A stretch of 35,709 nucleotides of DNA, from IMG/VR virus record IMGVR_UViG_3300045988_067384, positions 1-35,709 of that record. One strand, 5' to 3'. The stretch comes from a virus. The translations under genes were made by a program, and so were the position numbers. Below, one piece after another: positions 1-33,435 of the stretch (position 1 is the stretch's first letter; each line of letters begins with the position of its first letter). Under the pieces are notes generated by a model. The model was not told where the DNA came from. It did not search any database and saw only the letters and a program-made list of their open reading frames with translations.

Positions 1-55
1 CCTTAACAACACTACATTTACCGGCGATTGTCCGTTTTATAAGAGTATTGATAAG
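1..55. repeat. Terminal direct repeat, left copy (identical to 35655-35709)
   Basis: Read directly: ccttaacaacactacatttaccggcgattgtccgttttataagagtattgataag occurs at both ends of the window. Confidence 0.95.
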
Positions 56-97
56 TTTTATTTAGACTTGGCTAAGTGTACCTTGTCTGGGGTGTAA
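2..97 (+). CDS. 3' part of a junction-spanning small Cys-rich protein (ATG at 35566; 61 aa once the circle is closed)
   Basis: The frame from 35566 continues through the repeat into 56-94 and stops at TAA 95-97. Product is MSKIPANKCLNDDDNHRRCFARDEAGKCTCLNNTTFTGDCPFYKSIDKFYLDLAKCTLSGV. Confidence 0.55.
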   Translation, partial: LNNTTFTGDCPFYKSIDKFYLDLAKCTLSGV

Positions 98-112
98 GGA
101 AGGAGCGGTAAC

Positions 113-361
113 ATGGATGATTTCATTTACAGTACCCTTGCAGTGATGAGCACAGTAATCCTTTTATTCTGTGTCTTCTTTTACGAGGTGGCAGACTTCT
201 GTCTGGGAAGACCGGGAAGGATATTATTTACAGCATTAGGCTTAATGCTTATGGCTCTTGCCATCCTTGGGATGGGTGCCAGGGAAAAGAGACTTGCAGT
301 AGCAAGAGAAAAGAGGAGGAACAGGAATGAACAAGGTCATATTGATAGGCAGGCTGTGTAG
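113..361 (+). CDS. Small membrane protein (two hydrophobic helices, basic tail)
   Basis: A GGAAGGAG SD lies upstream of the ATG. Hydrophobic segments are AVMSTVILLFCVFFY and FTALGLMLMALAILGM. It overlaps the ssb start by 35 nt. Confidence 0.5.
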   Translation: MDDFIYSTLAVMSTVILLFCVFFYEVADFCLGRPGRILFTALGLMLMALAILGMGAREKRLAVAREKRRNRNEQGHIDRQAV

Positions 362-773
362 GGATCCTGAGATCAGGTATTCTCAGCAGGGAGACGAACA
401 GATGGCAGTGGCAAGGTATACCCTTGCCGTAGACAGAAGGTATAAAAAAGACAATGAGCAGAGTGCGGATTTCATCAGTTGCGTAGCCTTTGGACGTTCA
501 GCAGAGTTCGCAGATAAGTACCTTAAGCAGGGCACGAAGATATGTGTCTGCGGAAGGATACAGACAGGAAGCTATACTAACAGGGATGGCAATAAGGTGT
601 ATACAACAGATGTTGTGGTAGAAGAGCAGGAATTTGCCGAGAGCAAGAACACGGCAGGAAATGACGGCAGCAGTTCAAGGCAGCAGGCTCCTTCACCTGC
701 TCCGGATCCAAGAGAAGCTTCCGGCTTCATGAGTATTCCAGAGGGGATAGAAGATGATCTACCCTTCAAGTAG
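327..773 (+). CDS. ssb: Single-stranded DNA-binding protein
   Basis: N-terminal OB fold begins MNKVILIGRL..DPE.RY. The Gly/Ser/Pro-rich linker and acidic C-terminal tip DDLPFK are typical of bacterial and phage SSB. An AGGAGG SD is present. Confidence 0.95.
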   Translation: MNKVILIGRLCRDPEIRYSQQGDEQMAVARYTLAVDRRYKKDNEQSADFISCVAFGRSAEFADKYLKQGTKICVCGRIQTGSYTNRDGNKVYTTDVVVEEQEFAESKNTAGNDGSSSRQQAPSPAPDPREASGFMSIPEGIEDDLPFK

Positions 774-789
774 AGGAGATGAGGATGAT

Positions 790-1185
790 ATGGGCAAGAA
801 CAAGGTAAGCAAGTACAGTAGCCGGAAGGTTGAGGTTGACGGCATTGTGTTCGACAGCAAGAAGGAAGCACAAAGATACAGCCAGTTGAAAGCCCTTGAA
901 GCTTCCGGAGCAATTAGCGACCTGCAACGGCAGCGTAAGTATATCCTTATCCCAACACAGAGAGCGTTGACCAATGAAATCTATGAAAGAGGACCGCACA
1001 AAGGATCATTCAAGAAAGGGAGAATCCTCGAAAAGGAATGTTCATATCTTGCGGATTTTGTATACATAGACAACGAAAAGGGTGAACTGGTGGTTGAAGA
1101 TACGAAAGGCTTTAGAACCAGAGACTATATCATAAAAAGAAAGCTTATGTTGTATACATACGGCATAAGGATAAGAGAGGTGTAA
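790..1185 (+). CDS. DUF1064-family PD-(D/E)xK-like nuclease (putative resolvase)
   Basis: Shows KYSSRKVEVDGIVFDSKKEAQRYSQLKALE...ADFVYID...VVEDTKG, the pattern typical of the phage DUF1064 family. I chose the ATG at 790 (GGAGATGAGG SD) over the track start at 754. Confidence 0.7.
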   Translation: MGKNKVSKYSSRKVEVDGIVFDSKKEAQRYSQLKALEASGAISDLQRQRKYILIPTQRALTNEIYERGPHKGSFKKGRILEKECSYLADFVYIDNEKGELVVEDTKGFRTRDYIIKRKLMLYTYGIRIREV

Positions 1186-1188
1186 GCT

Positions 1189-2133
1189 ATGGCAGAAAAA
1201 AGAATGTTCTCGTTACAGGTTATAGGCTGTGATGATTTTAAGGAAATGCCCTTATCTGCCCAGGCATTGTATTTTCATCTGGGCATGAACGCAGATGATG
1301 AGGGCTTCCTTAACAATGCTAAGAGCGTGAAGAGGTCTATTCTTGCGTCTGATGATGACATGAAACTGTTGATTGCCAAGGGCTTCATCATACAATTTGA
1401 GTCAGGAGTGGTTGCAATTCGTCACTGGAAAGTTAATAACCAGATACAGACAAGCAGGATCAAGCCGTCACAGTGTATTGAAGAAAAGAGACTGCTTGAG
1501 GTGAAAGAGGATAAGACGTATGATTTCAGCTCCGGGCTTAATTCTGATGATGATACATGCATTGATGATACTTCCGCAGGGCAGCAGGATACGGATATAT
1601 CCAGCCATGACACAAAGTGTGATAGTTCTGATAACATTTGTCAGCAGAATGATAACACTTGCTGTCAAAATGTCAGCAAGTGTGAACAAAATGAAAGCAA
1701 ATGTTGGAATAGTATAGATAAGATTAGATTAGATAAGGATAGTATAGATAAGTGTAGTATAGATAATATAGCCGCTTCTTCCGGCAAGAGTGCCGGCAGC
1801 AGAGCGGCAAAGGCTCCCAAGAAGAAGTATGGGGAGTATAAGCATGTACTCTTAACTGCTGCCGAATATGAGAAGCTTACTGCCGATTATGGCGAGGATA
1901 TCAGGGATAAGGCAATAAAATACCTGGATGAATACATAGCGGAGAAAGCATATAAATCTAAATCGCATTATCTTGCAATCAAAAGATGGGTGATTGATGC
2001 AGTAACTAACCAGGAATCAAGGCAGTACCGATCTGGAACCAATGGAACAGCATATGATCCGGGCAGGAACCGGGTGGCTGAGCAGCTTGACCGCTCATAC
2101 GAGATGATGGCGAACTGGGCTTCGTCTGGGTAA
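1189..2133 (+). CDS. Phage replisome organizer (SPP1 G38P / DnaD-like)
   Basis: N-terminus is MFSLQVIGCDDFKEMPLSAQALYFHLGMNADDEGF, as in the replisome organizer N-domain. C-terminus is YGEYKHVLLTAAEYEKL...HYLAIKRWV, DnaD-C-like. The middle is a low-complexity D/C/S-rich linker. Confidence 0.8.
   Translation: MAEKRMFSLQVIGCDDFKEMPLSAQALYFHLGMNADDEGFLNNAKSVKRSILASDDDMKLLIAKGFIIQFESGVVAIRHWKVNNQIQTSRIKPSQCIEEKRLLEVKEDKTYDFSSGLNSDDDTCIDDTSAGQQDTDISSHDTKCDSSDNICQQNDNTCCQNVSKCEQNESKCWNSIDKIRLDKDSIDKCSIDNIAASSGKSAGSRAAKAPKKKYGEYKHVLLTAAEYEKLTADYGEDIRDKAIKYLDEYIAEKAYKSKSHYLAIKRWVIDAVTNQESRQYRSGTNGTAYDPGRNRVAEQLDRSYEMMANWASSG
1540..1770. repeat. Iteron-like repeat cluster inside the organizer gene (candidate origin of replication)
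   Basis: AGTATAGATAA occurs three times (1711, 1741, 1756) with TAGATTAGATAAG between copies. Upstream there are repeated CAAAATG and TGTCAGCA motifs and an imperfect inverted repeat, acatttgtcagca...tgctgtcaaaatgt. Confidence 0.4.
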
Positions 2134-2181
2134 CGAGGAAGCCGCAGGTAAATTGGTTAATGATTGCAAGGAGGATAGGAC

Positions 2182-2556
2182 ATGGAGTTAAAGAGAGGCA
2201 TGAAAACAAGAGAAATGCAACTAGGCAGCAGGAGAAAGAAGCTGCATGACATAGCAGGTTATTATGGATCCACAGCTCAGAGCAGACAGTGCATAGAGGA
2301 ATGTGCGGAGCTCATACAGGCCATTAACAAATGGGACAGAGCACAGAGCTCAGGAGACCCGGAGAAAGTAAAAAAAGCTGTGGGCAGTATAGTCGAGGAG
2401 ATTGCAGACGTTAGGATCATGCTTGACCAGTTGATCTATCTCTATGGCTGCAGTGAAGAAGTTGACAAGATGATAGACGGAAAGATCAACCGCCAGATAG
2501 TCAGGATTGGCATGGAGATAGCTGGGGGAAAGGAGCCGGAACAGTGTGGAGAATGA
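2182..2556 (+). CDS. MazG-like nucleotide pyrophosphohydrolase family protein
   Basis: Small all-helical protein with paired acidic motifs, IEECAELIQAI and IVEEIADVRIML, and a GKINRQ tail as in MazG-like phage proteins. AAGGAGGA SD. Confidence 0.55.
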   Translation: MELKRGMKTREMQLGSRRKKLHDIAGYYGSTAQSRQCIEECAELIQAINKWDRAQSSGDPEKVKKAVGSIVEEIADVRIMLDQLIYLYGCSEEVDKMIDGKINRQIVRIGMEIAGGKEPEQCGE

Positions 2557-3220
2557 AAACGAGAAGTGGATCGTTGACACCATAGTACATATGTCTGGCA
2601 AATATACACCCTATCAGATATTTACGGATTGGATAACAATGACAGCCATATCTATCAGCAATGCGTGTAGGATGATGCACGATAAGGTTTATTACGAGAG
2701 AGAAAAACGGTTTAAAGATATAGCAAACAAATATAGCAAAGAGGAGTTTCTTAATATCAGCAACATGACCGGAGCGTTGTGTGGTGTTTTGGAAGAACAG
2801 GGCGGAGATGTATTAGGTGATATATACATGAAGTCAGGCTGCGGCAACAAGGTCACTGGTCAGTTTTTTACACCCTTTAACATATCATATCTTACTGCTG
2901 CCACAGTGTATGATTCTCAATTTAATCATTTATCAGAAAATGAGGTGATTGAAATTCATGAGCCATCTGCAGGTGCTGGCGGGATGATTATTGCTGTTGC
3001 CCAGATTATGAAGGAGCGAGGACTTGACTATCAAAGGCAGCTTCGTGTGGTTGCACAGGATCTTGATTGGAATGGAGTATACATGACATATGTGCAGTTG
3101 TCGCTAATGGGTATTAAAGCCGTTGTGGTCCAGGGAGACACGCTGTGTGATCCGTACCACAGTGGATATGACGAGATGAGGGTGCTCAGAACACCGGCGG
3201 AAATGGGTATGTTGTTGTAA
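2546..3220 (+). CDS. N6-adenine DNA methyltransferase, N-terminal (AdoMet-binding) half only
   Basis: Carries motif X (GQFFTP), motif I (EPSAGAGG), motif II (VAQDLD) and motif III (VVQGDTL). The ORF stops 24 aa after motif III with no (D/N)PP(Y/F) motif. GTG start. Confidence 0.7.
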   Translation: MENENEKWIVDTIVHMSGKYTPYQIFTDWITMTAISISNACRMMHDKVYYEREKRFKDIANKYSKEEFLNISNMTGALCGVLEEQGGDVLGDIYMKSGCGNKVTGQFFTPFNISYLTAATVYDSQFNHLSENEVIEIHEPSAGAGGMIIAVAQIMKERGLDYQRQLRVVAQDLDWNGVYMTYVQLSLMGIKAVVVQGDTLCDPYHSGYDEMRVLRTPAEMGMLL

Positions 3221-3268
3221 AAAATATCTGAGCGGTAGGCAACTTAAACACATAGGAGGTATCCATAA

Positions 3269-4213
3269 ATGGCAATGAGTATAGAAGAGCAGAGAGAGGA
3301 ACTTTTCTGCGACTATTTTGAGAGATGGATAAAAGATTACAAGGAAGGAGTGGTAAGGCATGTGACATTGATCAAGTATCATATGGCAGCTAAGAGATTG
3401 AGAGAAATAGCCCCAAATCTTAGGATGAAAGATCTTACAAGAAACTCATATCAAAATATATTAAATGAGTATGCATTAACACATGAAAAAACTACCACGT
3501 CAGACTTCCACCATCAACTCAGAGCGTCCCTGGTAGACGCATTTGACGATGGAGTCCTGGAAAGGGATATATCACACCGGGCGGTGATCAAGGGGAAGCT
3601 TCCAACGATCAATAAGTGCGTTAAGTATATTGGCAAGAAAGATCTCGAAAAACTACTTGAGGTGTTGGAGCTTGGATCAGAAATAAACTGGGATTGGTTC
3701 ATTATGCTTGTGGCTAAGACAGGATTGAGATTTGAAGAGGCACTGGCACTTACTCCGGAAGACTTTGATTTTAACAATCTGAGATTGCATATAAACAAGG
3801 CGTTTGATTACAAGCTGACGAATACTTTTTGCAAGACCAAGAACGAGTCATCTGTGCGTACTATTCTTCTTGACTTTAGAACAGCAATGCAGTTTGAAAA
3901 TCTGATAAAAGGCATGAATGTGAAAGAAAGAATATTCAAGCTTGGAAAGGGAGAGAAGATATATAGCTCAACGGCAAATGATAGGTTGCGGAAGCTGTGC
4001 CTTAAAGCAGGTATACCGGTTATAACCATCCATGGCTTGAGGCATACACATGCGTCTGTGCTTATGTATGAGGGAGTGACTCTTTCAACCATATCCAGGA
4101 GATTAGGGCACTCAAGCATGGCCACCACGCAAAACGTATACCTTCACATGATAAGGGAGCTTGAATGTAAGGACGAAAGTAAGATCATGGCGTCAATGAT
4201 GGAACTAAGATAA
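3269..4213 (+). CDS. Tyrosine recombinase (second integrase-family gene; no arm-binding N-domain)
   Basis: Catalytic signature is intact: TGLRFEE (Arg), HGLRHTHAS (HxxR), LGHSS (His), NVYLHM (Tyr). 314 aa with an AGGAGGT SD. Confidence 0.9.
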   Translation: MAMSIEEQREELFCDYFERWIKDYKEGVVRHVTLIKYHMAAKRLREIAPNLRMKDLTRNSYQNILNEYALTHEKTTTSDFHHQLRASLVDAFDDGVLERDISHRAVIKGKLPTINKCVKYIGKKDLEKLLEVLELGSEINWDWFIMLVAKTGLRFEEALALTPEDFDFNNLRLHINKAFDYKLTNTFCKTKNESSVRTILLDFRTAMQFENLIKGMNVKERIFKLGKGEKIYSSTANDRLRKLCLKAGIPVITIHGLRHTHASVLMYEGVTLSTISRRLGHSSMATTQNVYLHMIRELECKDESKIMASMMELR

Positions 4214-4242
4214 ATAGTGAAAGAAAGAGATGGGTGATATGA

Positions 4243-4518
4243 ATGAAAAAAATTCCGAAGGTCATAGTAGATAAGATACAGCGGAGGAATGAATTGGATA
4301 AAGAAATTCATGAATGGCTTAAAGAGAATGTTGATTTGGAAGGAATGGATACAAGAAATGCGGACATTGTAGATGATGTATCAGGTGATAAACAGGGCAC
4401 CGAAGAATGTGAAGAATGGTGTGACCAAAGATGTCTAGGTGAAGATTGGTATATGGGAGACTACTACTGGGAGACAGAATATCCGGGAAAGTACCTTCAT
4501 ATGGAGTTTGGTATATAG
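4243..4518 (+). CDS. Hypothetical acidic protein
   Basis: 91-aa ORF with an SD, on the same strand as its neighbours. No motif recognised. Confidence 0.45.
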   Translation: MKKIPKVIVDKIQRRNELDKEIHEWLKENVDLEGMDTRNADIVDDVSGDKQGTEECEEWCDQRCLGEDWYMGDYYWETEYPGKYLHMEFGI

Positions 4519-4529
4519 GTGGTGATGGT

Positions 4530-4754
4530 ATGAAAATATACGAATATAAAGGTAAGCATTACTGTGAAGAAGACCTTTCGCTTACGGATGATGATTATGC
4601 TGGAGACTTGTATGACTTGTATTGGGAACTAAAGGAAGATGGAAAGGCAAATGAAAGCACTTCTTACTATGCCGGGGGAAATGCATACTGCGAAGCAGAG
4701 GAACTGGTGGAAGAAGAATTTGCTGATTTAGTAATAGGTGAGGTGATTACATGA
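4530..4754 (+). CDS. Hypothetical acidic protein
   Basis: Start moved to the ATG at 4530 (GGTGGTGATGG SD). Product begins MKIYEYKGKHYCEEDL. No motif recognised. Confidence 0.45.
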   Translation: MKIYEYKGKHYCEEDLSLTDDDYAGDLYDLYWELKEDGKANESTSYYAGGNAYCEAEELVEEEFADLVIGEVIT

Positions 4755-5278
4755 ACAGAGAGGAATTTGCAACATTTGCAATGGCATTAAAGACATACTA
4801 TCCCAGGGAAAATCTGCTGCCAAACAACCAGGCTATGGAGCTGTGGTATAAGCAGCTACAGGATATTCCGTATGATGTTGCTGAGGCGGCTCTGAACAAG
4901 TGGGTAGCAACCAACAAATGGTCACCATCAATAGCGGACATCCGGGAAGCATATGTATCCGTGGCAGCAGGTGACTACCCCCTTGCAGGGGAGGAGTGGG
5001 ATAAGGTAATGCAGGCTATATGCAAGTATGGATCATACAACCCGGTAGAAGCCTTAGCAAGTCTTAATCCCATCACAGCCAACACGGTTAGACAGATAGG
5101 CGGCTTCCGGCAACTATGCTTTTCCGAGAACATAGTTGCAGACCGGGCGAACTTCTATAGAGTGTATGACAGGAATGTGGAACGAGCACGGCAGCAGGCG
5201 TTAATATCGCCACAGCTTAAAATCACAATAGCCGGCATAGCACAGAGGCAGCAGGCATTATTAAGCAAAGAAAAATAA
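4751..5278 (+). CDS. Replicative helicase loader/inhibitor (SPP1 G39P-like)
   Basis: N-terminus is EEFATFAMALKTYYPRENLLPNNQAMELWYKQLQDIPYDVAEAALNKWVATNKWSPSIADIRE, which matches my memory of the G39P-like family. Confidence 0.6.
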   Translation: MNREEFATFAMALKTYYPRENLLPNNQAMELWYKQLQDIPYDVAEAALNKWVATNKWSPSIADIREAYVSVAAGDYPLAGEEWDKVMQAICKYGSYNPVEALASLNPITANTVRQIGGFRQLCFSENIVADRANFYRVYDRNVERARQQALISPQLKITIAGIAQRQQALLSKEK

Positions 5279-5283
5279 CATAA

Positions 5284-5850
5284 ATGAAAGGAGCCGAACC
5301 TCCGGCCGGGGTGACGATATATCGGGTTCCTTTTGAAAATATGGAATTAAAAGAACTTACAGAAAAGACACTTGATTTATTAAAAATCAAAAATACAGAT
5401 GAGATATCGAACCGTTTATTTGATGTTGCAACAAATAACGATGTTCGTGTATATGAACAATTTTGTACGTTGATTAAGAATGACTTATCGGTTGATTGGC
5501 TGCAAATGATCTTTCAGTATTATCAAGCAGATAGGAAAGAGAAGATGCAGGACTACACACCGAAAAGCCTCTCGATATTTGTTGGGCGGCTGGTCGGAAA
5601 ATCAGATGTGATAATTGATATGTGTGCTGGGAGTGGTGCGTTGACCATTCAAAAATGGAACATGATGCCAGAACAGAAATTTGAATTATATGAGTTTGAC
5701 GAAAATGTGCTTCCGTTTCTACTGTTCAACATGGCAGTAAGAAATATTCAATGCACTGTATATCATGCGGACGTATTGCAAGGCGAGATTTTCCACACAT
5801 ATACAGTCTCAAAAGGGGACAAGTACGGAAAAGTGAAGGAGGTAGAATAA
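5284..5850 (+). CDS. Split N6-adenine DNA methyltransferase, AdoMet-binding subunit (motifs X, I, II, III)
   Basis: Has DYTPKSL (motif X), IIDMCAGSGALT (I), LYEFDENV (II) and VYHADVL (III). It stops 23 aa after motif III. The exact start is uncertain. Confidence 0.75.
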   Translation: MKGAEPPAGVTIYRVPFENMELKELTEKTLDLLKIKNTDEISNRLFDVATNNDVRVYEQFCTLIKNDLSVDWLQMIFQYYQADRKEKMQDYTPKSLSIFVGRLVGKSDVIIDMCAGSGALTIQKWNMMPEQKFELYEFDENVLPFLLFNMAVRNIQCTVYHADVLQGEIFHTYTVSKGDKYGKVKEVE

Positions 5851-6875
5851 TGAGTATATCATTAATATCGAACCCACCATATAACATGAGGTGGAAATTG
5901 CCACCATTTGCACAACTTCAATCACGATTTAATGACTGTGAACTTCCACCAGAAAAAAATGCGAATTTTGCTTTTGTTTTAACCGCACTGGACAAGGTGG
6001 ATGCGAAAGGCGTTTTCATACTGCCGTGCAGTGTATTGAGTGATGGATTGAAGCAGGAAGAAGAAATCAGAAAGTATCTGATTGAAAAAAACTTAATAGA
6101 AGCAGTCATAACATGTCCAAACAATATGTTTGAAAGTACAGGAATTGCAGTTTGCATCATTGTTTTCAACAAGCATAAGAGTACCACGCAAATAGAGCTT
6201 GTTGACATGAAAAATACATATGAAGTGGTGGAACGTGAACAGAGAGGACAGTATGGAAGTGCAAGCCATACAAACAGAGTATATAAGAAAGCAATGAAGG
6301 TCTTTTCTGATGAACAAATGGAACGTGCTATAAAAGCGATTGAAGAACACACGACAGAGAAAGAGTTCTCTGTGAGTATATCACCAGAGGATATCAAGGA
6401 AAAAGGATATAATCTTTTGCCTTCTAAATATTTTGAAATTGATTTTGAACCACAGCCGCATAGGGAATACAAGGAAATCATAGCAGAGCTTAACCATGTG
6501 ATCGAAGAAAAAAACGGCTTGAAGCTGACGATGAATGAGAGTCTTGCGAAAGCAATAGGGCTGTACGAGATTTTCCAGACATTTAAGGTATCAGAAGAAA
6601 ATAACAAAGCGATGAATGAGACGCTGGGGTTCACAGGAGAAAAAATCATTTCAGAAAATTTCATTGCAATATCGAAAAAAGGCGGAGAATTAAAGTTCGA
6701 AAATGGGAGAAAGGACAGTGTATCAACAATTCTTATGTCAATTTTGCAGATGTGGAAGCAACACATCATGTATCTGAACATGGAGGAAAACAGATTTTTG
6801 GTAGAATTACGGGATGCGTTATTATCGGATTTAATGAGTGGAAAGATTGATATAGGTGGCGAGAATGAAGAATAG
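5850..6875 (+). CDS. Split N6-adenine DNA methyltransferase, catalytic subunit (motifs IV-VIII plus C-terminal region)
   Basis: Begins MSISLISNPPYNMRW, so the NPPY motif IV lies at residues 8-11. Also has NANFAFVLTAL and FESTGIAVCIIVFNK. The ATG overlaps the upstream stop (TAATG) and is preceded by GAAGGAGGT. Confidence 0.85.
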   Translation: MSISLISNPPYNMRWKLPPFAQLQSRFNDCELPPEKNANFAFVLTALDKVDAKGVFILPCSVLSDGLKQEEEIRKYLIEKNLIEAVITCPNNMFESTGIAVCIIVFNKHKSTTQIELVDMKNTYEVVEREQRGQYGSASHTNRVYKKAMKVFSDEQMERAIKAIEEHTTEKEFSVSISPEDIKEKGYNLLPSKYFEIDFEPQPHREYKEIIAELNHVIEEKNGLKLTMNESLAKAIGLYEIFQTFKVSEENNKAMNETLGFTGEKIISENFIAISKKGGELKFENGRKDSVSTILMSILQMWKQHIMYLNMEENRFLVELRDALLSDLMSGKIDIGGENEE

Positions 6876-7131
6876 CGAATTAAAAGAATATTTAAGTAGC
6901 TTTCCAGATGATGCACCATTAAGTATTATCTGTGTGAATCAGAGAGAAAGAAAACTATATGAGCTGAAAGAGGTATTGTTTATAACAGGCCAAAGACAAC
7001 CAGTGGTTTTGACTGACATTGGTAAAGAATCGGACATGGACGAAGAGATGAAGAAAGCGTGCGAAGAATGCGAATCTGATGATTTAACCGGGCAAATGGA
7101 GATCGAAGACTTCCCGGAGGTACTGCCATGA
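6865..7131 (+). CDS. Hypothetical small acidic protein
   Basis: ORF with an AGGTGG SD. Its stop overlaps the C5-MTase start (ATGA). No motif recognised. Confidence 0.45.
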   Translation: MKNSELKEYLSSFPDDAPLSIICVNQRERKLYELKEVLFITGQRQPVVLTDIGKESDMDEEMKKACEECESDDLTGQMEIEDFPEVLP

Positions 7132-8621
7132 TAAATGGAGAACTTATTATTGATAATTTTGCCGGCGGGGGCGGGGCTTCCACCGGCATAGAAATGGCTA
7201 CCGGGTACAGTGTTGATATTGCTATCAATCATGACCCGGAGGCTATAAGAATGCACCAAGCCAATCATCCAACTACTAAGCACTACTGCGAAAATGTATG
7301 GGCGGTGGATCCTGTGGAAGCCTGTGAGGGACATCCGGTAGCCCTTGCCTGGTTTTCCCCGGACTGCAAGCATTTCAGCAAGGCCAAGGGCGGTAAACCA
7401 AAGGATAAGAACATCAGAGGGCTTGCATGGGTAGCCTTGAGGTGGGCGGCTCTTGTGAGACCAAGAGTGATCATGCTTGAGAATGTTGAGGAATTTAAGA
7501 CATGGGGACCACTTAATAGAGGGCACCATCCTATCAAGGCAAAGCAAGGCGACACATTCAGGCGGTTTGTATGTCAGCTTAATGACTTAGGATACAACGT
7601 ACAGTACAGGGAGCTTGTGGCAGCAGATTACGGAGCACCGACCACAAGGAAGAGGTTTTTCCTGATAGCCAGGTGTGATGGAGGGGATATCATATGGCCG
7701 AAGCCTACACACGCTCCCATGGACAGCGAAGAAGTTAAGGCTGGATTGCTTAAGCCTTATGTAGGAGCATATACACAGCTTGATTTTAGCCTGCCATGTC
7801 CGAGCATATTCGACACATCTGAGGAAATCAAAGAGAAATATGGTATCAGAGCGGTAAGGCCGCTTGCATCAAAAACTATGCAGAGGATTGCACGAGGCTT
7901 GAAGAAATTCGTATTAGACAACCCTGAGCCGTTCATAGTACCTATTGGCTACGGTGAACGAATAGGACAAGCTCCAAGAGTTCACGACATTAAGAAACCA
8001 CTACCGACAATAGATCACAACCGGTTGTTTACGGCTACGCTCATCCAGTATCATTCAGAGACTGCCTCCGGCGGAGTACGAGGACAGACCATAGAAGCCC
8101 CTATCATGACAGTGGATGGGTCGAACAGATACGGACTTGTCACATCATTCCTTAGCAAGTTTTATAAGACCTGCACAGGTCAGGATGAAAGAGAGCCATT
8201 ACATACAGTGACTACATCAGCCGGGCACTTCGGAGAGGTTAGAGCGTTTCTGATCAAATACTATGGCGAAGGTACTGGCCAGGACATTGAACAGCCACTT
8301 GACACAGTGACATCAAGAGACCGGTTCGGACTTGTGACCATCAAAGGCGAACAGTATCAGATAGTGGATATTGGACTTAGGATGTTGGAGCCGAGAGAAC
8401 TGTATGGGTGCCAAGGCTTCCCAGATGATTACATCATAGATCATGACAGCACAGGTAAGACATATTCAAGAAGTGAACAGGTTAAGAGATGTGGGAATGC
8501 AGTTTGTCCACCTATACCGGCGGCGATGGTGAGGTCGAATCTTCCAGAGCTTTGTGTAAGAAAAAGGATGCCAAACATGAGGATAGGCGAAGAAGAGAAT
8601 GGACAGTTGTGTTTTGTGTAA
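7128..8621 (+). CDS. DNA (cytosine-5) methyltransferase
   Basis: Has motif I (IDNFAGGGGAS), a catalytic PC-type motif (SPDCKHFS), ENV (MLENVEEF), QGFPDDY and GNAVCPP. Confidence 0.95.
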   Translation: MINGELIIDNFAGGGGASTGIEMATGYSVDIAINHDPEAIRMHQANHPTTKHYCENVWAVDPVEACEGHPVALAWFSPDCKHFSKAKGGKPKDKNIRGLAWVALRWAALVRPRVIMLENVEEFKTWGPLNRGHHPIKAKQGDTFRRFVCQLNDLGYNVQYRELVAADYGAPTTRKRFFLIARCDGGDIIWPKPTHAPMDSEEVKAGLLKPYVGAYTQLDFSLPCPSIFDTSEEIKEKYGIRAVRPLASKTMQRIARGLKKFVLDNPEPFIVPIGYGERIGQAPRVHDIKKPLPTIDHNRLFTATLIQYHSETASGGVRGQTIEAPIMTVDGSNRYGLVTSFLSKFYKTCTGQDEREPLHTVTTSAGHFGEVRAFLIKYYGEGTGQDIEQPLDTVTSRDRFGLVTIKGEQYQIVDIGLRMLEPRELYGCQGFPDDYIIDHDSTGKTYSRSEQVKRCGNAVCPPIPAAMVRSNLPELCVRKRMPNMRIGEEENGQLCFV

Positions 8622-8628
8622 CGGGTTT

Positions 8629-8647
8629 GAGGGGATTTGAACCCCTC
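8629..8647. other. Stem-loop after the C5-MTase gene; the minus strand reads like a tRNA T-arm
   Basis: The plus strand reads GAGGGG-atttgaa-CCCCTC. The minus strand reads AGGGG-TTCAAAT-CCCCT followed by CAAACCCG. No matching 5' tRNA half is present. Confidence 0.4.
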
Positions 8648-8740
8648 GGTGCCCAAATTTTGCGTTGATGATAATGAAATAACGATGAATTTTAGTGATA
8701 TTTATGAATGGCTTCAATCAGAAGCGGAATAGGAGAGAAC

Positions 8741-9187
8741 ATGGAAGACAGATATTTATTCAAGGCAAAGAGAGCTGATAATGGAGAATGGGTTATCGGA
8801 TTTCACGCATACATACATAAAAAACATTATATTTACACCGGGCAACTAATACACGGCGGATTGTATGATGTTGCTGAAAGATTTGAAGTAGACCCATCCA
8901 CCATCTGCCAATGCACAGGTTTGAGAGACGAGCACGGCAAGCTGATTTGGGAAAATGATATTGTAAAAGATTTCTTCAGTGATGCGTGCGCACCAATTAG
9001 ATATGGCAGTTATCAAAACTGTTTTGATAACTCAAAAGCAGAGCATATCGGATTTTATGTAGATTGGTCAGGAAAGTATACTAAAAATTACAGAAAAGAT
9101 TTTGGTTATTGGATTCATATGGTTGATACAGAAGTTATCGGCAATGTATTTGACGATCCAGAGTTATTAGGGAGGAACGACGAATGA
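8741..9187 (+). CDS. YopX-family protein
   Basis: Shows YLFKAKRADNGEWVIG...VDPSTICQCTGLRDEHGKLIWENDIV, the characteristic YopX pattern. Start set at ATG 8741 (AGGAGAGAAC SD). Confidence 0.75.
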   Translation: MEDRYLFKAKRADNGEWVIGFHAYIHKKHYIYTGQLIHGGLYDVAERFEVDPSTICQCTGLRDEHGKLIWENDIVKDFFSDACAPIRYGSYQNCFDNSKAEHIGFYVDWSGKYTKNYRKDFGYWIHMVDTEVIGNVFDDPELLGRNDE

Positions 9188-9945
9188 GTGTAAAACCAAT
9201 ATTGTTTAATACAGAGATGGTTCGGGCGATTCTGGACGGACGAAAGACTTGCACCCGACGTGTGATAAAGCCACAGCCTTATGGAAAGTGTACATACCCA
9301 CTTGGTTTTGTTACCGACAGTACAGAAAAGAAAGAGGTAGGATGCTTTGGATTTGGCATTGATGAATACGGCGGTTCTATTCAGTATGCGAAGCCATCGT
9401 ATCAGCCGGGAGATATCCTGTACGTTCGGGAAACATGGGAGCGTTTTGAATGTTGGAACTGTGATGGAGACGAAAGAGGAAATTGCCCCAAAGAACCAAA
9501 GAAAGGCGTTTTGGATAAAACTTGTGGTTGCTACATGTATCGGGCAACAGATGAAATACGCGGAGACGCGAAGTGGCACCCATCCATCCATATGCCAAAA
9601 GAAGCCACACGTATCTGGCTTAAGGTTACAGATGTAAGAGTGGAGCGGTTGCAGGAAATAACAGAAGTACAGTCACAAGCGGAAGGCATAAGAGGATACT
9701 CTAAGGACGGAAATCTTTATAAGTATGCTGTTACTGATGATTGGTGGATTGATTTTCACAATAAACATAGAAAATCGTTTTTGGGTACTTGGTGGCAGGA
9801 TATGCCTAGAACTGCAAAAGATGCGTTTTCATATCTTTGGAACTCCACCATCAAACCATCCGACTTTGACCGCTACGGATGGGGTGCAAATCCGTGGGTA
9901 TGGGTAATAGAATTTGAACGGTGCGAAAGAAGAGACAGGCATTGA
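9184..9945 (+). CDS. ASCH/PUA-like domain protein
   Basis: Shows ILFNTEMVRAILDGRKTCTRRV...PGDILYVRETW...WHPSIHMPKEATRIWLKVTDVRVERLQEI, a pattern I associate with phage ASCH-like proteins often found next to methyltransferases. Confidence 0.5.
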   Translation: MSVKPILFNTEMVRAILDGRKTCTRRVIKPQPYGKCTYPLGFVTDSTEKKEVGCFGFGIDEYGGSIQYAKPSYQPGDILYVRETWERFECWNCDGDERGNCPKEPKKGVLDKTCGCYMYRATDEIRGDAKWHPSIHMPKEATRIWLKVTDVRVERLQEITEVQSQAEGIRGYSKDGNLYKYAVTDDWWIDFHNKHRKSFLGTWWQDMPRTAKDAFSYLWNSTIKPSDFDRYGWGANPWVWVIEFERCERRDRH

Positions 9946-10044
9946 ATTCTCAATCAGAGAAAACAAATAAGGAGATGTGGTCGGTGAAAGCAAAAGAATA
10001 TTTAAGACAGGGGGAACTCCTGGACATAAGAATACAGCAAAAGA

Positions 10045-10120
10045 AGAGCTATGCATAGGAAAGAGAACGCCCAACATGCGGATAGGGGAAGAAGCTGCGG
10101 GGCCGTTATGTTTTGTATAA
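10045..10120 (+). pseudogene. Remnant of a second, diverged C5-MTase 3' end (paralogous to 8546-8621)
   Basis: My hand alignment gives about 57/76 nt identical to the end of the C5-MTase gene. In frame it reads ELCIGKRTPNMRIGEEAAGPLCFV* against ELCVRKRMPNMRIGEEENGQLCFV*. No MTase body lies upstream. Confidence 0.6.
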
Positions 10121-10146
10121 TTAATAAATGGAGGGTAATATAAGTA

Positions 10147-10473
10147 ATGACAGATGAACATGTAAAAGCAGTGGTAAAAGAAACCATAGACGCATTGCTT
10201 GGAGAGTCAATGATTAAATATAGTGACCTGATCATATATGAGCAGATATCAGATAGGCTACGAGAATATTACAAGACAGGTGATGATCCGGTGCTTGAAC
10301 GTGCGTTAGAAAAGCTTAAGAACCATCCACATATTAATTTACTTGATGATTACTACCGGGACAATCTGACACTGGAGCATATAGCAGAGATCTACGGAGT
10401 GGAAGTAAGAACTGTAAGCCGGTGGAAGAAAAACCTGTGTATTAAGATTTACAAGACGATGGGGACGACCTGA
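10147..10473 (+). CDS. Late-gene transcriptional regulator, sigma-70 region-4-like HTH (ArpU/RinA-like)
   Basis: C-terminal HTH is LTLEHIAEIYGVEVRTVSRWKKNL. It sits immediately upstream of the lysis, packaging and structural genes. Confidence 0.5.
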   Translation: MTDEHVKAVVKETIDALLGESMIKYSDLIIYEQISDRLREYYKTGDDPVLERALEKLKNHPHINLLDDYYRDNLTLEHIAEIYGVEVRTVSRWKKNLCIKIYKTMGTT

Positions 10474-10490
10474 ATGGCCGTCTCTTTTTT
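10462..10490 (+). terminator. Rho-independent terminator overlapping the regulator stop codon
   Basis: Stem gggacgacc / ggccgtctc (one mismatch), loop tgaat, followed by a T6 run. Confidence 0.65.
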
Positions 10491-10582
10491 ATGCCCGAAA
10501 ATGTCCATAGACAGTCATTCTAATATCATAAACATAGCCTTATCATTGATGTATGACGTATCGGAAAGAAAGGAGTGGAGGT

Positions 10583-10855
10583 ATGGATAACATAACAGAG
10601 TATATCAAGCCGGAACTGCTTATATTGGTTCCTGTACTGATCGTGATTGGATTATTCCTTAAAGAGACAGAGAAGGTCAACGACAAGTATATTCCGGCAA
10701 TCTTAGGAGCTGCAGGAGAGGTGCTGAGCGCACTGTATGTGTCAGCGGTTTCCGGAATAAGCCTTATGGGTATATTCACAGCAATAACACAGGGAGTTCT
10801 TGTGGCAGGGGCAGCAGTATATGTAGATCAGATTGCTAAGCAGGCAAAGAAGTAG
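10583..10855 (+). CDS. Holin (phi LC3 / Phage_holin_5-like)
   Basis: Shows ITEYIKPELLILVPVLIVIGLFLKETEKVNDKYIPAILGAAG...AITQGVLVAGAAVYVDQIAKQAKK. Start set at ATG 10583 (GGAGTGGAGG SD). Confidence 0.85.
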   Translation: MDNITEYIKPELLILVPVLIVIGLFLKETEKVNDKYIPAILGAAGEVLSALYVSAVSGISLMGIFTAITQGVLVAGAAVYVDQIAKQAKK

Positions 10856-10866
10856 GTGATCAGCTC

Positions 10867-11085
10867 ATGTTAGAGTCAATAATAGTAGGGCTGTTAAGTC
10901 TACTTGGAACCTGCATAGGCTCACTGGGTGGAATGAAACTCATGGGCTATCGTATAGAGCAACTTGAAAAGAAGGTTGATAAACACAACCACTTTGCGGA
11001 GCGTATGCCGGTGGTAGAGGAACAGATTAAGGTACTCAACCATAGAGTGGAAGATTTAGAAAGGAGTGAAGGCAGTGGACATTAA
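10867..11085 (+). CDS. Membrane-anchored coiled-coil protein of the lysis cassette (XhlA-like?)
   Basis: N-terminal TM helix IIVGLLSLLGTCIGSLGG, then the coiled coil IEQLEKKVDKHNHFAERMPVVEEQIKVLNHRVEDLE. It lies between the holin and the endolysin. Confidence 0.4.
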   Translation: MLESIIVGLLSLLGTCIGSLGGMKLMGYRIEQLEKKVDKHNHFAERMPVVEEQIKVLNHRVEDLERSEGSGH

Positions 11086-11935
11086 GCAGTGTTTTTTAAC
11101 AAATAATGATTGCTATAAGGCAGCAGGAAATATCACACCAAATGGTATAATCGTACATTCAACCGGGTGCAACAATCCTAACCTTAGAAGATATGTACAG
11201 CCGGATGATGGAATACTGGGAAAGAACCCAAACGGAAACGACTGGAACAGAGCAATGGCCAAGGGTGATCGCAAATGTGTACATGCTTTCATTGGAAAGG
11301 ATAAAAACGGCACAGTAAGGGTATATCAGACTCTTCCTTGGAACTATAAGTGCTGGGGTTGTGGATCAGGCTCTAAGGGTTCATACAACGGTTCTTATAT
11401 CCAGCTTGAGATCTGCGAGGACGCTCTTAACGATAGTACATATTTCACTGCGGCGTTCAAGATGGCAGCAGATCTGTGTAGGTATCTGATGGATAAGTAT
11501 AACATTCCGGTTGAGAATGTGATCAGCCACAAGGAGGCAGCAGCTAGAGGATATGCAAGCAGCCATGTAGATCCTGAACACTGGCTTGCCAAGTTCGGCA
11601 AGGATATGAAGTGGTTCAGAAATCAGCTCACAGTTAAGGTTATCAACGAAGAGGCAACCGGTGTGCTCAAGCCGACAACGAAGCATGAGCCACTTGATAA
11701 GTTGAGTCAGCCGTATAAGGTCCGTATCACAGCAACAGCGTTGTACATACGTTCTGGACCAGGTACAGGCTATAAGGATGTTGGCCTTCTCACTGATGAC
11801 AAGGCCATGATAAAAAAGAACCCATCTTATTATTTTCCGAAGGGCGTATATACCATTTCGGAGACAAAGAACGGATGGGGCAGATTAAAGAGTGGAGTTG
11901 GCTGGATATACCTCGATTATACCAAGAAGGTATAA
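11075..11935 (+). CDS. Endolysin: N-acetylmuramoyl-L-alanine amidase (Amidase_2/PGRP) with C-terminal SH3 domain
   Basis: Has GIIVHSTG, VHAFIG, IQLEICE and ISHKEAAARGYASSHVDPEHW. The C-terminus is RSGPGTGYKDVG...GWGRLKSGVGWIYLDY. GTG 11075 has better SD spacing than GTG 11066. Confidence 0.9.
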   Translation: MDIKQCFLTNNDCYKAAGNITPNGIIVHSTGCNNPNLRRYVQPDDGILGKNPNGNDWNRAMAKGDRKCVHAFIGKDKNGTVRVYQTLPWNYKCWGCGSGSKGSYNGSYIQLEICEDALNDSTYFTAAFKMAADLCRYLMDKYNIPVENVISHKEAAARGYASSHVDPEHWLAKFGKDMKWFRNQLTVKVINEEATGVLKPTTKHEPLDKLSQPYKVRITATALYIRSGPGTGYKDVGLLTDDKAMIKKNPSYYFPKGVYTISETKNGWGRLKSGVGWIYLDYTKKV

Positions 11936-11947
11936 AGGGGTGATTGT

Positions 11948-12298
11948 TTGGATGAACCTAAACTCAAACCACAGTTAAAATTGTTGGCAACTTATTATAG
12001 GGGCGAATGTGCCGGAAACGCCGAAAAATCAGCGGTTAAGGCAGGTTACTCCCCAAAGTATGCCAGAGGCAATGCATACAAATTAGTGGCAAGAAAAGAC
12101 GTGCAGGAATATATGGCATATCTGGATTATCTGCAAAATACTAATCCTGCCAATCCTGCACTTCACATAGCGTCAGTTAATGAGATACAGGCTTTCTGGA
12201 CGAATGTCATGAAAAGCCCTGAGTGGGAGATGAAAGACCGACTGAGGGCAGCAGAGAGCCTGGCAAAGAGCAGGGGAGCATTTAATAATGATTGGTAA
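11948..12298 (+). CDS. Terminase small subunit-like protein (Terminase_2 type HTH)
   Basis: TTG start after an AAGGGGTGA SD. Shows GNAEKSAVKAGYSPKYARGNAYKLVARKDVQEYM and DRLRAAESLAKSRGAF. Confidence 0.7.
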   Translation: MDEPKLKPQLKLLATYYRGECAGNAEKSAVKAGYSPKYARGNAYKLVARKDVQEYMAYLDYLQNTNPANPALHIASVNEIQAFWTNVMKSPEWEMKDRLRAAESLAKSRGAFNNDW

Positions 12299-29111: not shown

Positions 29112-29141
29112 AAAAAAAACACTAAAAAATACAAAAAAGCA

Positions 29142-29170
29142 TTGACAATGCACCTTATAAGGTGTATTAT
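29142..29170 (+). promoter_or_regulatory. Promoter P1 with a palindromic operator in the spacer
   Basis: TTGACA (29142-29147), 17-nt spacer, TATTAT (29165-29170). The spacer carries the perfect 14-bp palindrome CACCTTATAAGGTG (29151-29164). Confidence 0.7.
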
Positions 29171-29205
29171 AATACTTGTAAGGAAGAGAAAGCGAGGTAA
29201 TAGAA

Positions 29206-29598: not shown

Positions 29599-29622
29599 AT
29601 TTTAAAAATATGGATAAAATGC

Positions 29623-29651
29623 TTGACAATGCACCTTATAAGGTGTATTAT
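29623..29651 (+). promoter_or_regulatory. Promoter P2, exact duplicate of P1 and its operator
   Basis: The 42-nt exact repeat ttgacaatgcaccttataaggtgtattataatacttgtaagg occurs at 29142-29183 and 29623-29664. Confidence 0.7.
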
Positions 29652-29700
29652 AATACTTGTAAGGGGAACTTACTAAAAGGCAAGAGAAAGGAGAAAAAGA

Positions 29701-30333: not shown

Positions 30334-30357
30334 GGTGGGCACGAGGTGGGCAGAAAT
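30334..30357. repeat. 24-nt direct repeat, copy 1 (candidate integrase-binding / attP element)
   Basis: ggtgggcacgaggtgggcagaaat is identical to 30544-30567. Each copy contains GGTGGGCA twice. Confidence 0.8.
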
Positions 30358-30543: not shown

Positions 30544-30567
30544 GGTGGGCACGAGGTGGGCAGAAAT
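30544..30567. repeat. 24-nt direct repeat, copy 2, abutting the integrase stop codon
   Basis: Exact copy of 30334-30357. It ends 1 nt before the int stop codon (30568-30570 on the minus strand). Confidence 0.8.
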
Positions 30568-31686: not shown

Positions 31687-31837
31687 ATATATTCCTCCTG
31701 TATGAGATAGAAAAAATCCTATCAAAATCAGAAGGCTTGTGATATAATACACTCGTGTATGCGTTATATATAAGCCTTCTTAGGTTTGTAGGTAACACAC
31801 CCCCTCAGATGGGCCAACATCTGGGGGAATTTTTATT

Positions 31838-33394: not shown

Positions 33395-33435
33395 TGTACT
33401 ACCTCCTTTCTTGTAAGTAGAATACATTATATGCG

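Follow-up and report, generated by a model that had tools for sequence, protein, structure and literature searches.

The window analysed here, that is, the whole stretch of 35,709 nucleotides of the IMG/VR virus record IMGVR_UViG_3300045988_067384, is a closed 35.65-kb phage genome without any near-identical DNA match among GenBank phages. The locus of interest lies within a co-directional early/replication operon, between a MazG-like and a G39P-like gene. Rfam has no matches in the window, and candidate promoters or terminators proper to the locus do not exceed the chance level. The following features are discussed:

2546..4213 (+), subdivided as follows:
2546..3220 (+), halfM: GTG start, 224 aa; assignment from Pfam N6_Mtase, phrog_5696, AF2, Foldseek and dN/dS
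3221..3268 (+), probable deletion scar: decayed 3' end of a type A recA that was lost, with a stop just before the recB start
3269..4213 (+), recB: intact tyrosine recombinase of 314 aa; assignment from Pfam Phage_integrase, catalytic residues, dN/dS and relatives
4243..4518 (+), orf91: small ORF that travels with the halfM-recB pair in the lineage of the window
2520..4683 (no strand), exchangeable accessory cassette as delimited against the sibling phage L128: halfM, the scar, recB, orf91 and most of orf102
5284..6875 (+), split N6-adenine methyltransferase (MTase): N-subunit 5284-5850 and NPPY subunit 5850-6875; not part of the module

The product of halfM is a non-catalytic, HsdM-like AdoMet-binding protein which is short by nature and not damaged. 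As the preliminary description had recognised, it carries motifs X (GQFFTP), I (EPSAGAGG), II (AQDLD) and III (QGDTL), all shared with HsdM and the gamma-class N6-adenine MTases (PF02384), and ends 24 aa past motif III without an NPPY motif. Its N6_Mtase match in Pfam is restricted to positions 4-126 of the 311 positions of the profile (E 1.6e-8); its best PHROG is phrog_5696, matched end to end (E 3.7e-66), and it is not a member of the split-MTase N-subunit family phrog_1071, which it matches only at E 6.7e-8. The four motifs are invariant or nearly so in an alignment of 46 homologues, where the position of motif IV is occupied by a conserved vestige, RVLRTPAE, whose T216 and P217 are invariant. 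The pattern [NDS]PP[YFW] is absent from halfM and from every one of the about 115 homologues scanned. The AF2 model (pLDDT 91, pTM 0.90) is made up of a helical N-domain and strands beta1-beta4, after which the chain reaches its C-terminus. This fold matches the equivalent region of HsdM, PacII M1/M2 and M.BseCI, the Foldseek matches being the N-halves of PacII, M.BseCI and HsdM, and the resemblance to HsdM reaches 32% identity across 138 aa (E 4e-14). Contrary to HsdM, halfM has TPAE instead of NPPY and lacks beta5-beta7, the C-terminal HsdS-binding helices and the TRD; both AF2 and Pfam indicate an incomplete seven-stranded Rossmann fold with no target-recognition or HsdS-binding part. Since all these elements are missing, the protein is unable to methylate DNA by itself. 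The N-domain of HsdM is responsible for HsdM-HsdM bridging, is the site of the m* mutations and probably touches HsdR, whereas the binding of HsdS requires the C-terminal domain (PMC2647291), which is the one missing from halfM. A recent capture of halfM from the HsdM of a shufflon locus was considered and rejected, as the similarity is only remote (15-46 bits).

A length of about 220 aa is normal for the whole halfM family. Among 2,214 matches, the best 120 are 182-250 aa long, and among 1,848 clusters at E<=1e-10, the best 150 span 117-341 aa. The homologues of the 2546 ORF are therefore normally of this length and naturally devoid of NPPY, an outcome that the preliminary description had named as incompatible with its own reading of the gene, and halfM evolves under purifying selection (dN/dS 0.04-0.09). 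The family is a large and uncharacterised phage family, common enough to count thousands of sequences, that is now mislabelled "Type I R-M methyltransferase subunit" or "N-6 DNA methylase"; with PADLOC and NCBIfam, the locus gives nothing more specific than a generic match to a Type I MTase N-half and another to recombinases. Relatives of halfM also occur alone, in phages and plasmids, and the neighbourhood of these stand-alone genes contains no recurrent family (99 ORFs compared with Pfam). In a distant subfamily the recombinase is absent at 27 of 32 loci, which means that halfM also has a recombinase-independent role.

The second gene, recB, starts 48 nt past the end of halfM and encodes the intact tyrosine recombinase already reported from the letters alone. 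It matches Phage_integrase (PF00589, E 3.6e-23) and a SAM-like core-binding domain in Pfam, its N-domain matches the integrase CB domain 3lys (E 5.6e-18), and domain searches find no arm-binding domain in it. R154, H255xxR258, H281 and Y291 do not vary across the alignment of recombinases, and a dN/dS of 0.02-0.05 indicates purifying selection. The lysogeny integrase role is filled not by recB but by the separate canonical integrase of this genome, located at 30568-31752 on the minus strand and adjoining an S24-type repressor.

The phage relatives of recB (57-100% identity) are found, every one of them, behind a halfM. Its relatives at Type I hsdS loci, where they are flanked by hsdS genes on one or both sides, are 49-54% identical and come from five loci in four genera. 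The Type I contexts include Coprobacillus-type loci with hsdS repeats, locus L125, invertons of L. intestinalis and Listeria, and a gene of L. ultunensis that adjoins an hsdS inversion confirmed by long reads (PMC9881135); a further relative, on pMP118, has no R-M genes nearby. Judged by these relatives, recB is part of the recombinase lineage that serves the hsdS shufflons of Type I R-M. It is homologous to the recombinases of hsdS shufflons and epigenetic invertons (PsrA/CreX, TvrR and related clades; Huang et al. 2020, PMC7672463), with which it shares the catalytic residues and the absence of an arm-binding domain. In contrast to them, it sits in a phage early operon, coupled to a truncated non-catalytic HsdM-like gene, with no hsdS, hsdR, full hsdM or hsdS repeats nearby. 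The grouping with Xer-like dimer resolvases that had also been envisaged does not hold, as recB scores 48, 45 and 30 bits against the XerC, XerD and XerS models, far under the respective cut-offs of 335, 330 and 267.

The association between the two genes is not peculiar to the window. At 55 of the 61 non-redundant loci sampled from the close halfM subfamily, a recombinase lies directly downstream of halfM, typically with a 4-nt overlap, and it is adjacent or within 1.2 kb at 58 of them. Two recombinase lineages serve halfM: type A (XerA-like, hereafter recA) and type B (recB). The partner swaps between these lineages and the halfM-then-recombinase order and the coupling are kept, which argues for a functional partnership. 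The pair recurs across many unrelated phage backbones and is accompanied by no conserved third gene (the most frequent cluster is found at 13 of 63 loci); full-text literature searches yielded no earlier description of it. In the relatives L010 and L011, a Lar-family gene is located two genes 3' of the pair.

The type A recombinases come close to the XerA model (215 bits for a cut-off of 220) and are 33-41% identical to xerA-annotated recombinases from Type I loci of four genera, with representatives in L. salivarius, Lactococcus, E. faecium and L. sakei. Taking both lineages together, in 8 of the 11 sampled contexts of their cellular relatives the recombinase gene has hsdS genes around it, within a Type I R-M shufflon locus; the three non-R-M contexts are pMP118, a C. 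botulinum phage-plasmid and a Methanosphaera plasmid. The "DNA adenine methylase" found upstream of the xerA-like gene in C. botulinum was tried as a candidate and is not a halfM.

The 48-nt spacer of the window is probably explained by the loss of a type A gene. Positions 3221-3268 can be aligned, without a shift of register, to the 3' ends of recA in L018 and L123. The best match covers 28 of 48 nt, a value attained in 3 of 2,000 shuffles and in 3 of 739 control windows from the genome. The translation of the spacer, KISER*AT*THRRYP*, is to be compared with the recA 3' end DISEQELAQAHRKYV*. The window carries, in derived form, a module of three genes, halfM - XerA-like recA - recB, from which recA was probably deleted, leaving a scar of about 45 nt.

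The preliminary description had proposed that the half-MTase and the recombinase belong together as a cassette, and the sibling phages bear this out. The comparison of window positions 1-12000 with L126, L127, L128 and L192 (blastn) shows that 2520-4683 is missing as a unit from L128 (IMGVR_UViG_3300029245_000017), an about 97% identical phage. L192 also lacks the block, with the right joint at 4467/4468. The left joint, 2519/2520, is common to these two comparisons and the right joints differ (4467 vs 4683); like those of usual mosaic exchange, the joints coincide with the ends of genes, and no att-like or terminal repeats were found at the cassette. The same slot may be filled by an alternative 176-aa cargo without a recombinase. 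The small orf91, which belongs to no Pfam or PHROG family, is present in L004, L005 and L013; L192 matches only its last 21 codons and L128 nothing of it, and in other lineages it falls outside the conserved neighbourhood of the pair. The phages that bear the module are gut phages and appear to infect Lachnospiraceae and other Clostridia. Altogether, we regard the description and the evolutionary history of 2546-4213 as a conserved phage accessory module as highly secure. The existence of natural siblings with and without the cassette makes the function of this module directly testable.

The search for a DNA substrate of the recombinase within the phage gave no candidates of note. The preliminary description had seen no convincing long repeats by eye, and the computation agrees with it: neither direct nor inverted repeats rise above chance within 2000-7000 or in the whole genome. 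Searches for the hsdS-type repeat cores seen at the Type I loci were negative for the window, and among 192 other loci the cores did not turn up outside the Type I loci. As for dif/lox-like sites, defined as two inverted arms around a 6-8 nt spacer, positions 2500-4700 contain one weak candidate where 0.9 are expected, hence none above chance, and the whole genome is devoid of sites with perfect arms. The window yielded neither an hsdS nor an hsdR gene, the neighbours of recB being replication genes. Since the phage has no hsdS gene, hsdS-type repeat or other plausible site, the recombinase would most likely act on the host.

Several scenarios may explain these data. The one that we tentatively favor, without holding it to be probable, is that of an early-expressed accessory module aimed at phase-variable Type I R-M systems of the host, a reading suggested by the homologies of both proteins. 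In that case, the recombinase would invert or excise specificity cassettes in a multi-hsdS Type I R-M locus of the host. The halfM protein would be either a partner subunit of the recombinase or a mimic of HsdM, and such a mimic could disturb the assembly of the host M2S/R2M2S complex or restriction by it. The net effect would be to counter population-level, phase-variable restriction. The parts of the module have relatives in exactly the phase-variable Type I machinery. It has been shown that a temperate phage spreads less in the face of phase-variable Type I systems (PMC6755750), and phase-variable Type I R-M is widespread in host-associated bacteria (PMC7672463). Like the DNA mimics Ocr and ArdA and the restriction alleviation proteins Ral and Lar, the module is an accessory, early-expressed and exchangeable phage element, and the target proposed for it is the same; yet it has no structural or sequence relation to any of them, and the mechanism proposed here would combine subunit mimicry with DNA rearrangement. 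If the module does engage host hsdS loci or Hsd complexes, it would represent a novel principle of counter-defence, in which a dead methyltransferase half is also put to a new use.

Nevertheless, some observations fit this host-directed reading poorly. The closest Type I-linked relatives of recB are found in Bacilli and Erysipelotrichales, whereas the phages apparently infect Clostridia. A rearrangement of hsdS DNA leaves existing restriction complexes in place, so that a gain within a single infection is not obvious. Moreover, a role of halfM as a pure decoy does not account for the strict conservation of its AdoMet motifs. The remote similarity to the HsdMs of shufflon loci, the distant halfM relatives without a recombinase and the three contexts not linked to R-M also weigh against the host-directed reading. 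A more specific version of the scenario, which we consider rather doubtful, is that temperate gut phages use the module to hijack the phase-variation machinery of the host: during lytic growth the recombinase or recombinases would reshuffle or excise hsdS, and the catalytically dead mimic of HsdM would prevent restriction or favour methylation de novo. If this were true, the progeny DNA would carry modifications of several specificities and evade the bet-hedging that phase-variable R-M offers at the population level, a counter-defence by rearrangement of the host defence locus itself. To our knowledge, phages have not been described to possess a counter-measure directed specifically against the layer of phase variation.

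Alternatively, the recombinase could act on the DNA of the phage, for instance in the resolution of replication multimers or another site-specific step, with halfM as a regulatory subunit that is accessory or senses AdoMet. A comparable role is played at cer/psi by PepA and ArgR, the helpers of Xer, and the tight translational coupling of the pair suggests a complex. The position of the cassette in the replication module, the near-cut-off XerA scores of the type A partners and the existence of one relative that is a stand-alone archaeal XerA would also be congruent with this option, and recB resembles the recombinases of Xer/dif and Cre/lox resolution in being a simple tyrosine recombinase without an arm-binding domain carried on a replicon. 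Yet, the block is dispensable in the sibling L128, the XerC/XerD scores of recB are low, and both lineages have their nearest relatives mostly among the enzymes of hsdS loci. The preliminary suggestion that the recombinase rearranges this block or resolves dimers finds no foothold either, given the lack of repeats or lox/dif-like sites above chance. Action on the phage's own DNA seems unlikely.

Another possibility is that the pair forms a small selfish cassette, in which the recombinase would move the unit between phages and halfM would be cargo, such as an anti-restriction or AdoMet-directed factor. The dispersal of the pair over unrelated backbones, its presence/absence polymorphism with a left joint repeated in two comparisons, and the solitary halfM relatives of phages and plasmids could all be understood in this way. 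The discordant right joints, their placement at gene ends, the lack of att-like or terminal repeats and the recombinase-free cargo found in the same slot speak against it, and recombinase lineages that replace one another with order and coupling kept argue instead for a functional partnership. We deem this explanation decidedly unlikely.

It is less plausible still, and in our view very improbable, that halfM acts alone through AdoMet, by binding, sensing or degrading it or by poisoning HsdM/PglX-type enzymes, and that the recombinase is merely co-transcribed. The invariance of motifs X, I, II and III and the many distant-subfamily loci without a recombinase are in line with this option, and AdoMet depletion is a known phage counter-defence, exemplified by the T3 SAMase (bioRxiv 10.1101/2023.02.27.530186). 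Nevertheless, no hydrolase or lyase features were identified in halfM, and chance co-transcription is hard to square with the near-constant proximity of a recombinase in the close subfamily, mostly with overlapping genes, or with the involvement of two independent recombinase lineages, both of them linked to Type I systems.

The split MTase that follows the cassette deserves separate treatment, since the preliminary description had connected it with halfM. Its subunits match the N6_Mtase profile at positions 12-120 (N-subunit) and 129-304 (NPPY subunit); the two genes meet at a TAATG stop/start overlap preceded by a GGAGG RBS, and the second product begins with MSISLISNPPY. It is indeed the only NPPY half of the genome (5850-6875). 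The claim that both N-halves are cut at the same structural point stands only as far as distance is concerned: the split N-subunit ends 23 aa past its own motif III, close to the 24 aa of halfM, but it stops before beta4, which is supplied by its partner, whereas halfM keeps this strand. The two N-halves have no BLAST similarity (E 2.3). L126 and L004 retain the pair at 96-100% identity and have a D12/Dam-type MTase in place of the split one, and L128 has other sequence at the slot of the split MTase, the flanks of this slot staying 95-99% identical in these phages. Module and split MTase thus vary independently, which indicates that the two MTase halves are not partners, and among the loci scanned other than the window itself, only L073 has a catalytic half less than 8 kb away from halfM. 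The proposals that a recombinase cassette destroyed an MTase gene, of which halfM would be the remnant, or that halfM is an alternative N-partner for 5850-6875, can therefore be dismissed: the matching end points and the single NPPY half speak for them, and the naturally short family under purifying selection, the dissimilarity of the N-halves and their independent variation speak against them. Like the N-subunits of split phage N6-MTases (phrog_1071 plus an NPPY subunit), halfM is a separate AdoMet-binding polypeptide coupled to the next gene, but that gene encodes a recombinase and not a catalytic half, and halfM includes beta4 and a dead motif IV.

The AdoMet-binding half-methyltransferase (halfM) and the tyrosine recombinase found 48 nt behind it (recB) form a conserved module.

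2546-3220, + strand: halfM, GTG start, 224 aa, matching only positions 4-126 of the 311-position Pfam N6_Mtase profile
3269-4213, + strand: recB, 314 aa, Phage_integrase family, with a SAM-like core-binding domain and without arm-binding domain

Their association was studied in 25 IMG/VR loci, 80 genome loci and several metagenome contigs with halfM homologues, by running HMMs for halfM and two recombinase types over all ORFs and making the counts non-redundant. In the close halfM subfamily, a same-strand tyrosine recombinase lies directly downstream in 55 of 61 loci, typically with a 4-nt ATGA overlap; in the remaining six it is within 1.2 kb (three) or absent (three). The distant subfamily (Faecalibacterium phage Taranis, Vibrio phages, Melainabacteria, Bordetella and a Burkholderia plasmid) has it directly downstream in only 5/32. 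The usual partner, type A, is XerA/XerC/D-like, measures 326-361 aa and is extended N-terminally by 60 aa. The window partner is of type B (310-320 aa), which directly follows halfM in the window lineage, L043, L079, L122 and L124, and the order halfM, A, B is found in L018, L022 and L123. The pair occurs in unrelated backbones (PcfJ/DUF4406/YopX/GpA-terminase phages and a serine-integrase/tubulin phage) and no third gene is consistently linked to it. In the halfM tree, the window lineage is nested in A-partnered sequences, next to the A+B clade, and the other B-partnered halfMs branch elsewhere; partners have thus been exchanged, with order and coupling preserved.

The two-gene form of the window probably descends from halfM-A-B by deletion of A, a scenario with moderate support. 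The spacer 3221-3268 (48 nt) can be aligned, in register, to the terminal ~45 nt of type A genes; in L018 and L123 the type A stop codon falls just before the type B start. The best identity of the spacer (28/48) was reached by only 3 of 2,000 shuffles and 3 of 739 genomic TAA-ending control windows, and its translation reads KISER*AT*THRRYP* against DISEQELAQAHRKYV*.

Other arrangements were also observed. L043, a Lachnospiraceae contig, carries two tandem modules (L043:486-1157 and L043:3350-4114), halfM with type B and, ~2 kb on, halfM with type A. In L044 and L051, an additional integrase-like ORF (359-369 aa) lies just upstream of halfM. Near the stand-alone distant halfMs of Melainabacteria/Gastranaerophilales (L089, L091, L092, L094, L096, L099, L105), 0.7-3.5 kb downstream on the opposite strand, lies a small ORF of 187-200 aa, about the size of FimB/FimE-type invertases, with weak tyrosine-recombinase similarity. 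In the C. botulinum phage-plasmid NZ_CP022402.1 (L201:4071-5942), a 251-aa 'DNA adenine methylase' directly precedes an xerA-like type A relative, between the tail and lysis genes of this phage-like replicon; it was ruled out as a halfM (hhalign probability 0.1), so that a different kind of MTase is paired with a recombinase here.

HalfM is an HsdM-like member of a naturally short family and not a truncation product. The phrog_5696 profile (250 positions, function unknown) matches it end to end (E 3.7e-66). Among 5.8 billion proteins, 2,214 matches were found, and of the best 120 all are 217-250 aa long save one of 182 aa from a 625-bp contig; when representatives at 50% identity were searched exhaustively, 1,848 clusters matched at E<=1e-10, the best 150 spanning 117-341 aa. 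The motif [NDS]PP[YFW] occurs in none of about 115 halfM-homologous ORFs, and dN/dS is 0.04 (window versus L004) and 0.09 (L123 versus L018). The AlphaFold2 model (46-sequence alignment, pLDDT 91, pTM 0.90) consists of a helical N-domain (residues 4-96) followed by Rossmann beta1-beta4, where it ends. Foldseek retrieved the N-terminal halves of PacII M1/M2, M.BseCI and HsdM subunits, and a Type I HsdM is 32% identical over 138 aa (E 4e-14). Judging from these features, halfM alone cannot act as a methyltransferase. The preliminary description had placed its motifs correctly, as well as the distances from motif III to the end of halfM (24 aa) and of the N-subunit of the split MTase (23 aa). The common structural cut point deduced from them did not hold, as the ends lie one strand apart: halfM keeps beta4 and a conserved motif IV vestige, RVLRTPAE (T216 and P217 invariant), and the split N-subunit ends before beta4.

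We infer that both partner lineages derive from hsdS-shuffling enzymes, halfM being an HsdM derivative. In the six lineages examined, every phage relative of recB with 57-100% identity is preceded by a halfM. Those that follow in identity (49-54%) are cellular and mostly found in Type I R-M loci. Coprobacillus/Faecalibacillus-type chromosomes have the order hsdS-hsdM-McrBC-partial hsdS-recombinase, with hsdS repeat cores and hsdS fragments varying among contigs; in L125 the recombinase is accompanied by HsdM and an hsdS fragment; the arrangement in Lactobacillus intestinalis and Listeria innocua is that of the classic inverton (hsdR-hsdM-hsdS, recombinase, opposed hsdS); and the hsdS neighbouring the Lactobacillus ultunensis relative (NZ_CP059830.1 15345-16556) is among long-read-confirmed programmed inversions (PMC9881135). 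A further relative, on pMP118, is not near any R-M genes. The type A lineage has relatives annotated xerA (33-41% identity) that lie among several hsdS genes in the Type I loci of L. salivarius, Lactococcus cremoris, E. faecium and L. sakei, the other two sampled being a stand-alone archaeal XerA and the C. botulinum phage-plasmid gene. Over both lineages, 8 of 11 sampled contexts are Type I-linked. Six clades of such hsdS-locus recombinases have been described, including TvrR-type excision/reintegration between direct repeats (Huang et al., PMC7672463), which matches the direct-repeat layout of the hsdS repeats in Coprobacillus/Faecalibacillus-type loci. In two chromosomal Type I loci, 14-16-nt inverted repeats bracket the recombinase gene, which may thus itself be invertible; in L125 the repeats have no mismatch and overlap the part of hsdS that encodes 'HQRE'.

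L119:6971-6986/7928-7943: inverted repeats around the recombinase gene
L125:6966-6979/7940-7953: inverted repeats around the recombinase gene

The hsdS-shuffler ancestry of the partners, the HsdM-derived halfM and the lack of a substrate in the phage make engagement of the host's phase-variable Type I R-M the most economical reading, although one held tentatively and at somewhat less than even chances; halfM could then be an HsdM subunit mimic. Such systems restrict the spread of temperate phages within populations (PMC6755750), and a hijacked host shufflon would, if true, be a new counter-defence principle. The N-domain of EcoKI HsdM makes up the HsdM-HsdM bridge, is the site of the m* mutations permitting de novo methylation and includes a patch linked to HsdR contact, and HsdS binding requires the HsdM C-terminal domain (PMC2647291), which halfM lacks. 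By this analogy subunit mimicry is plausible, the homology of the two N-domains being suggested by fold only. Nevertheless, the Type I-linked recombinase relatives come from other Firmicutes classes, pure mimicry leaves the invariant AdoMet motifs unexplained, and the stand-alone relatives imply that halfM also has a recombinase-independent role. No description of the phage pair was found in the full-text literature searched, including key hsdS-inverton papers, and it is unnamed in PADLOC, NCBIfam and PHROGs. Its parts belong to known families; the combination, the phage location and the dead HsdM half are, to our knowledge, new.

Alternatively, the recombinase could act on phage DNA. That the assembled window closes into a circular phage genome of 35,654 bp is shown by a perfect 55-nt terminal direct repeat (1-55 = 35655-35709); many contigs with halfM cluster members measure about 34-35.8 kb. 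A scan of 2000-7000 and of the whole genome for inverted or direct repeats gave nothing significant other than promoter-like, int-proximal and origin-like ones, the hsdS repeat cores of Type I loci are absent from the phage, and it has no lox/dif-like sites above chance. A phage target, with no substrate of these kinds, seems unlikely. Four tandem 15-nt iteron-like repeats (GAATAGAATAGATAA, 1707-1766) within the DnaD-like replisome-organiser gene (1189-2133) are likely the replication origin. Two copies of a 60-nt element (29124-29183 and 29605-29664) lie in the low-GC (35-36%) stretch from the lysis genes to int; each has a near-consensus promoter (TTGACA...TATAAT) whose spacer contains a palindrome (GCACCTTATAAGGTGT), and they are possible regulated promoters of morons. 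Candidate attP arm or core sites are the two copies of a perfect 24-nt direct repeat (GGTGGGCACGAGGTGGGCAGAAAT, 30334-30357 and 30544-30567), which stops exactly where the canonical integrase gene has its 3' end. At 33476-33549, shortly beyond the start of the leftward S24-type repressor gene (32765-33427) and on the side of the rightward early genes, 2.5 copies of a 30-nt unit probably represent operators of the lysis-lysogeny switch.

The module lies in an accessory cassette embedded in a co-directional early/replication operon, and no promoter or terminator signal of the cassette itself exceeds chance. L128 (IMGVR_UViG_3300029245_000017), ~97% identical to window 1-2519 and 7113-12000, has 666 bp with a single 176-aa ORF of unknown family in place of 2520-4683; L192 has the same left joint and rejoins the window at 4468. 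These joints are at gene ends and show no att-like repeats. A selfish mobile cassette, which the accessory status would favour and the lack of such repeats disfavour, is quite unlikely. For the alternative cargo (MDKDFKFNHEKYYDPTAYKAL..., L128:4573-5103 and L192:7482-8012), Pfam and PHROG gave no informative match; it may be a further candidate for an accessory or counter-defence gene. An AdoMet-directed solo function of halfM beside an unrelated recombinase would suit the stand-alone relatives and is, with the coupling so conserved in the close subfamily, very unlikely.

The split MTase is genuine: a GGAGG site precedes the TAATG in which the stop codon of the N-subunit (5284-5850) overlaps the start codon of the NPPY subunit (5850-6875). 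In L126/L013 and L004, halfM and recB are retained with 96-100% identity, alongside a D12/Dam MTase instead of the split N6-MTase, and halfM has no BLAST similarity to the split N-subunit (E 2.3). With the cassette thus independent of the split MTase, and the halfM family naturally short with low dN/dS, the earlier proposals of an alternative N-half for the 5850 product or of an MTase gene destroyed by the cassette are scarcely credible. A second variable slot, 5332-7112, holds the split N6-MTase and a small ORF (6856-7131) in the window; in L126 and L004 it is occupied by the D12/Dam MTase, and in L128 by some 1.26 kb of different sequence. Its flanks and the C5-MTase gene (7128-8621) are 95-99% identical. 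The C-terminal ~45 residues of the 5850-6875 product (6738-6866) match the conserved HsdS C-terminal helix in PADLOC (PDLC03068 and others), which suggests an HsdS-like coiled-coil element fused to the phage MTase catalytic subunit.
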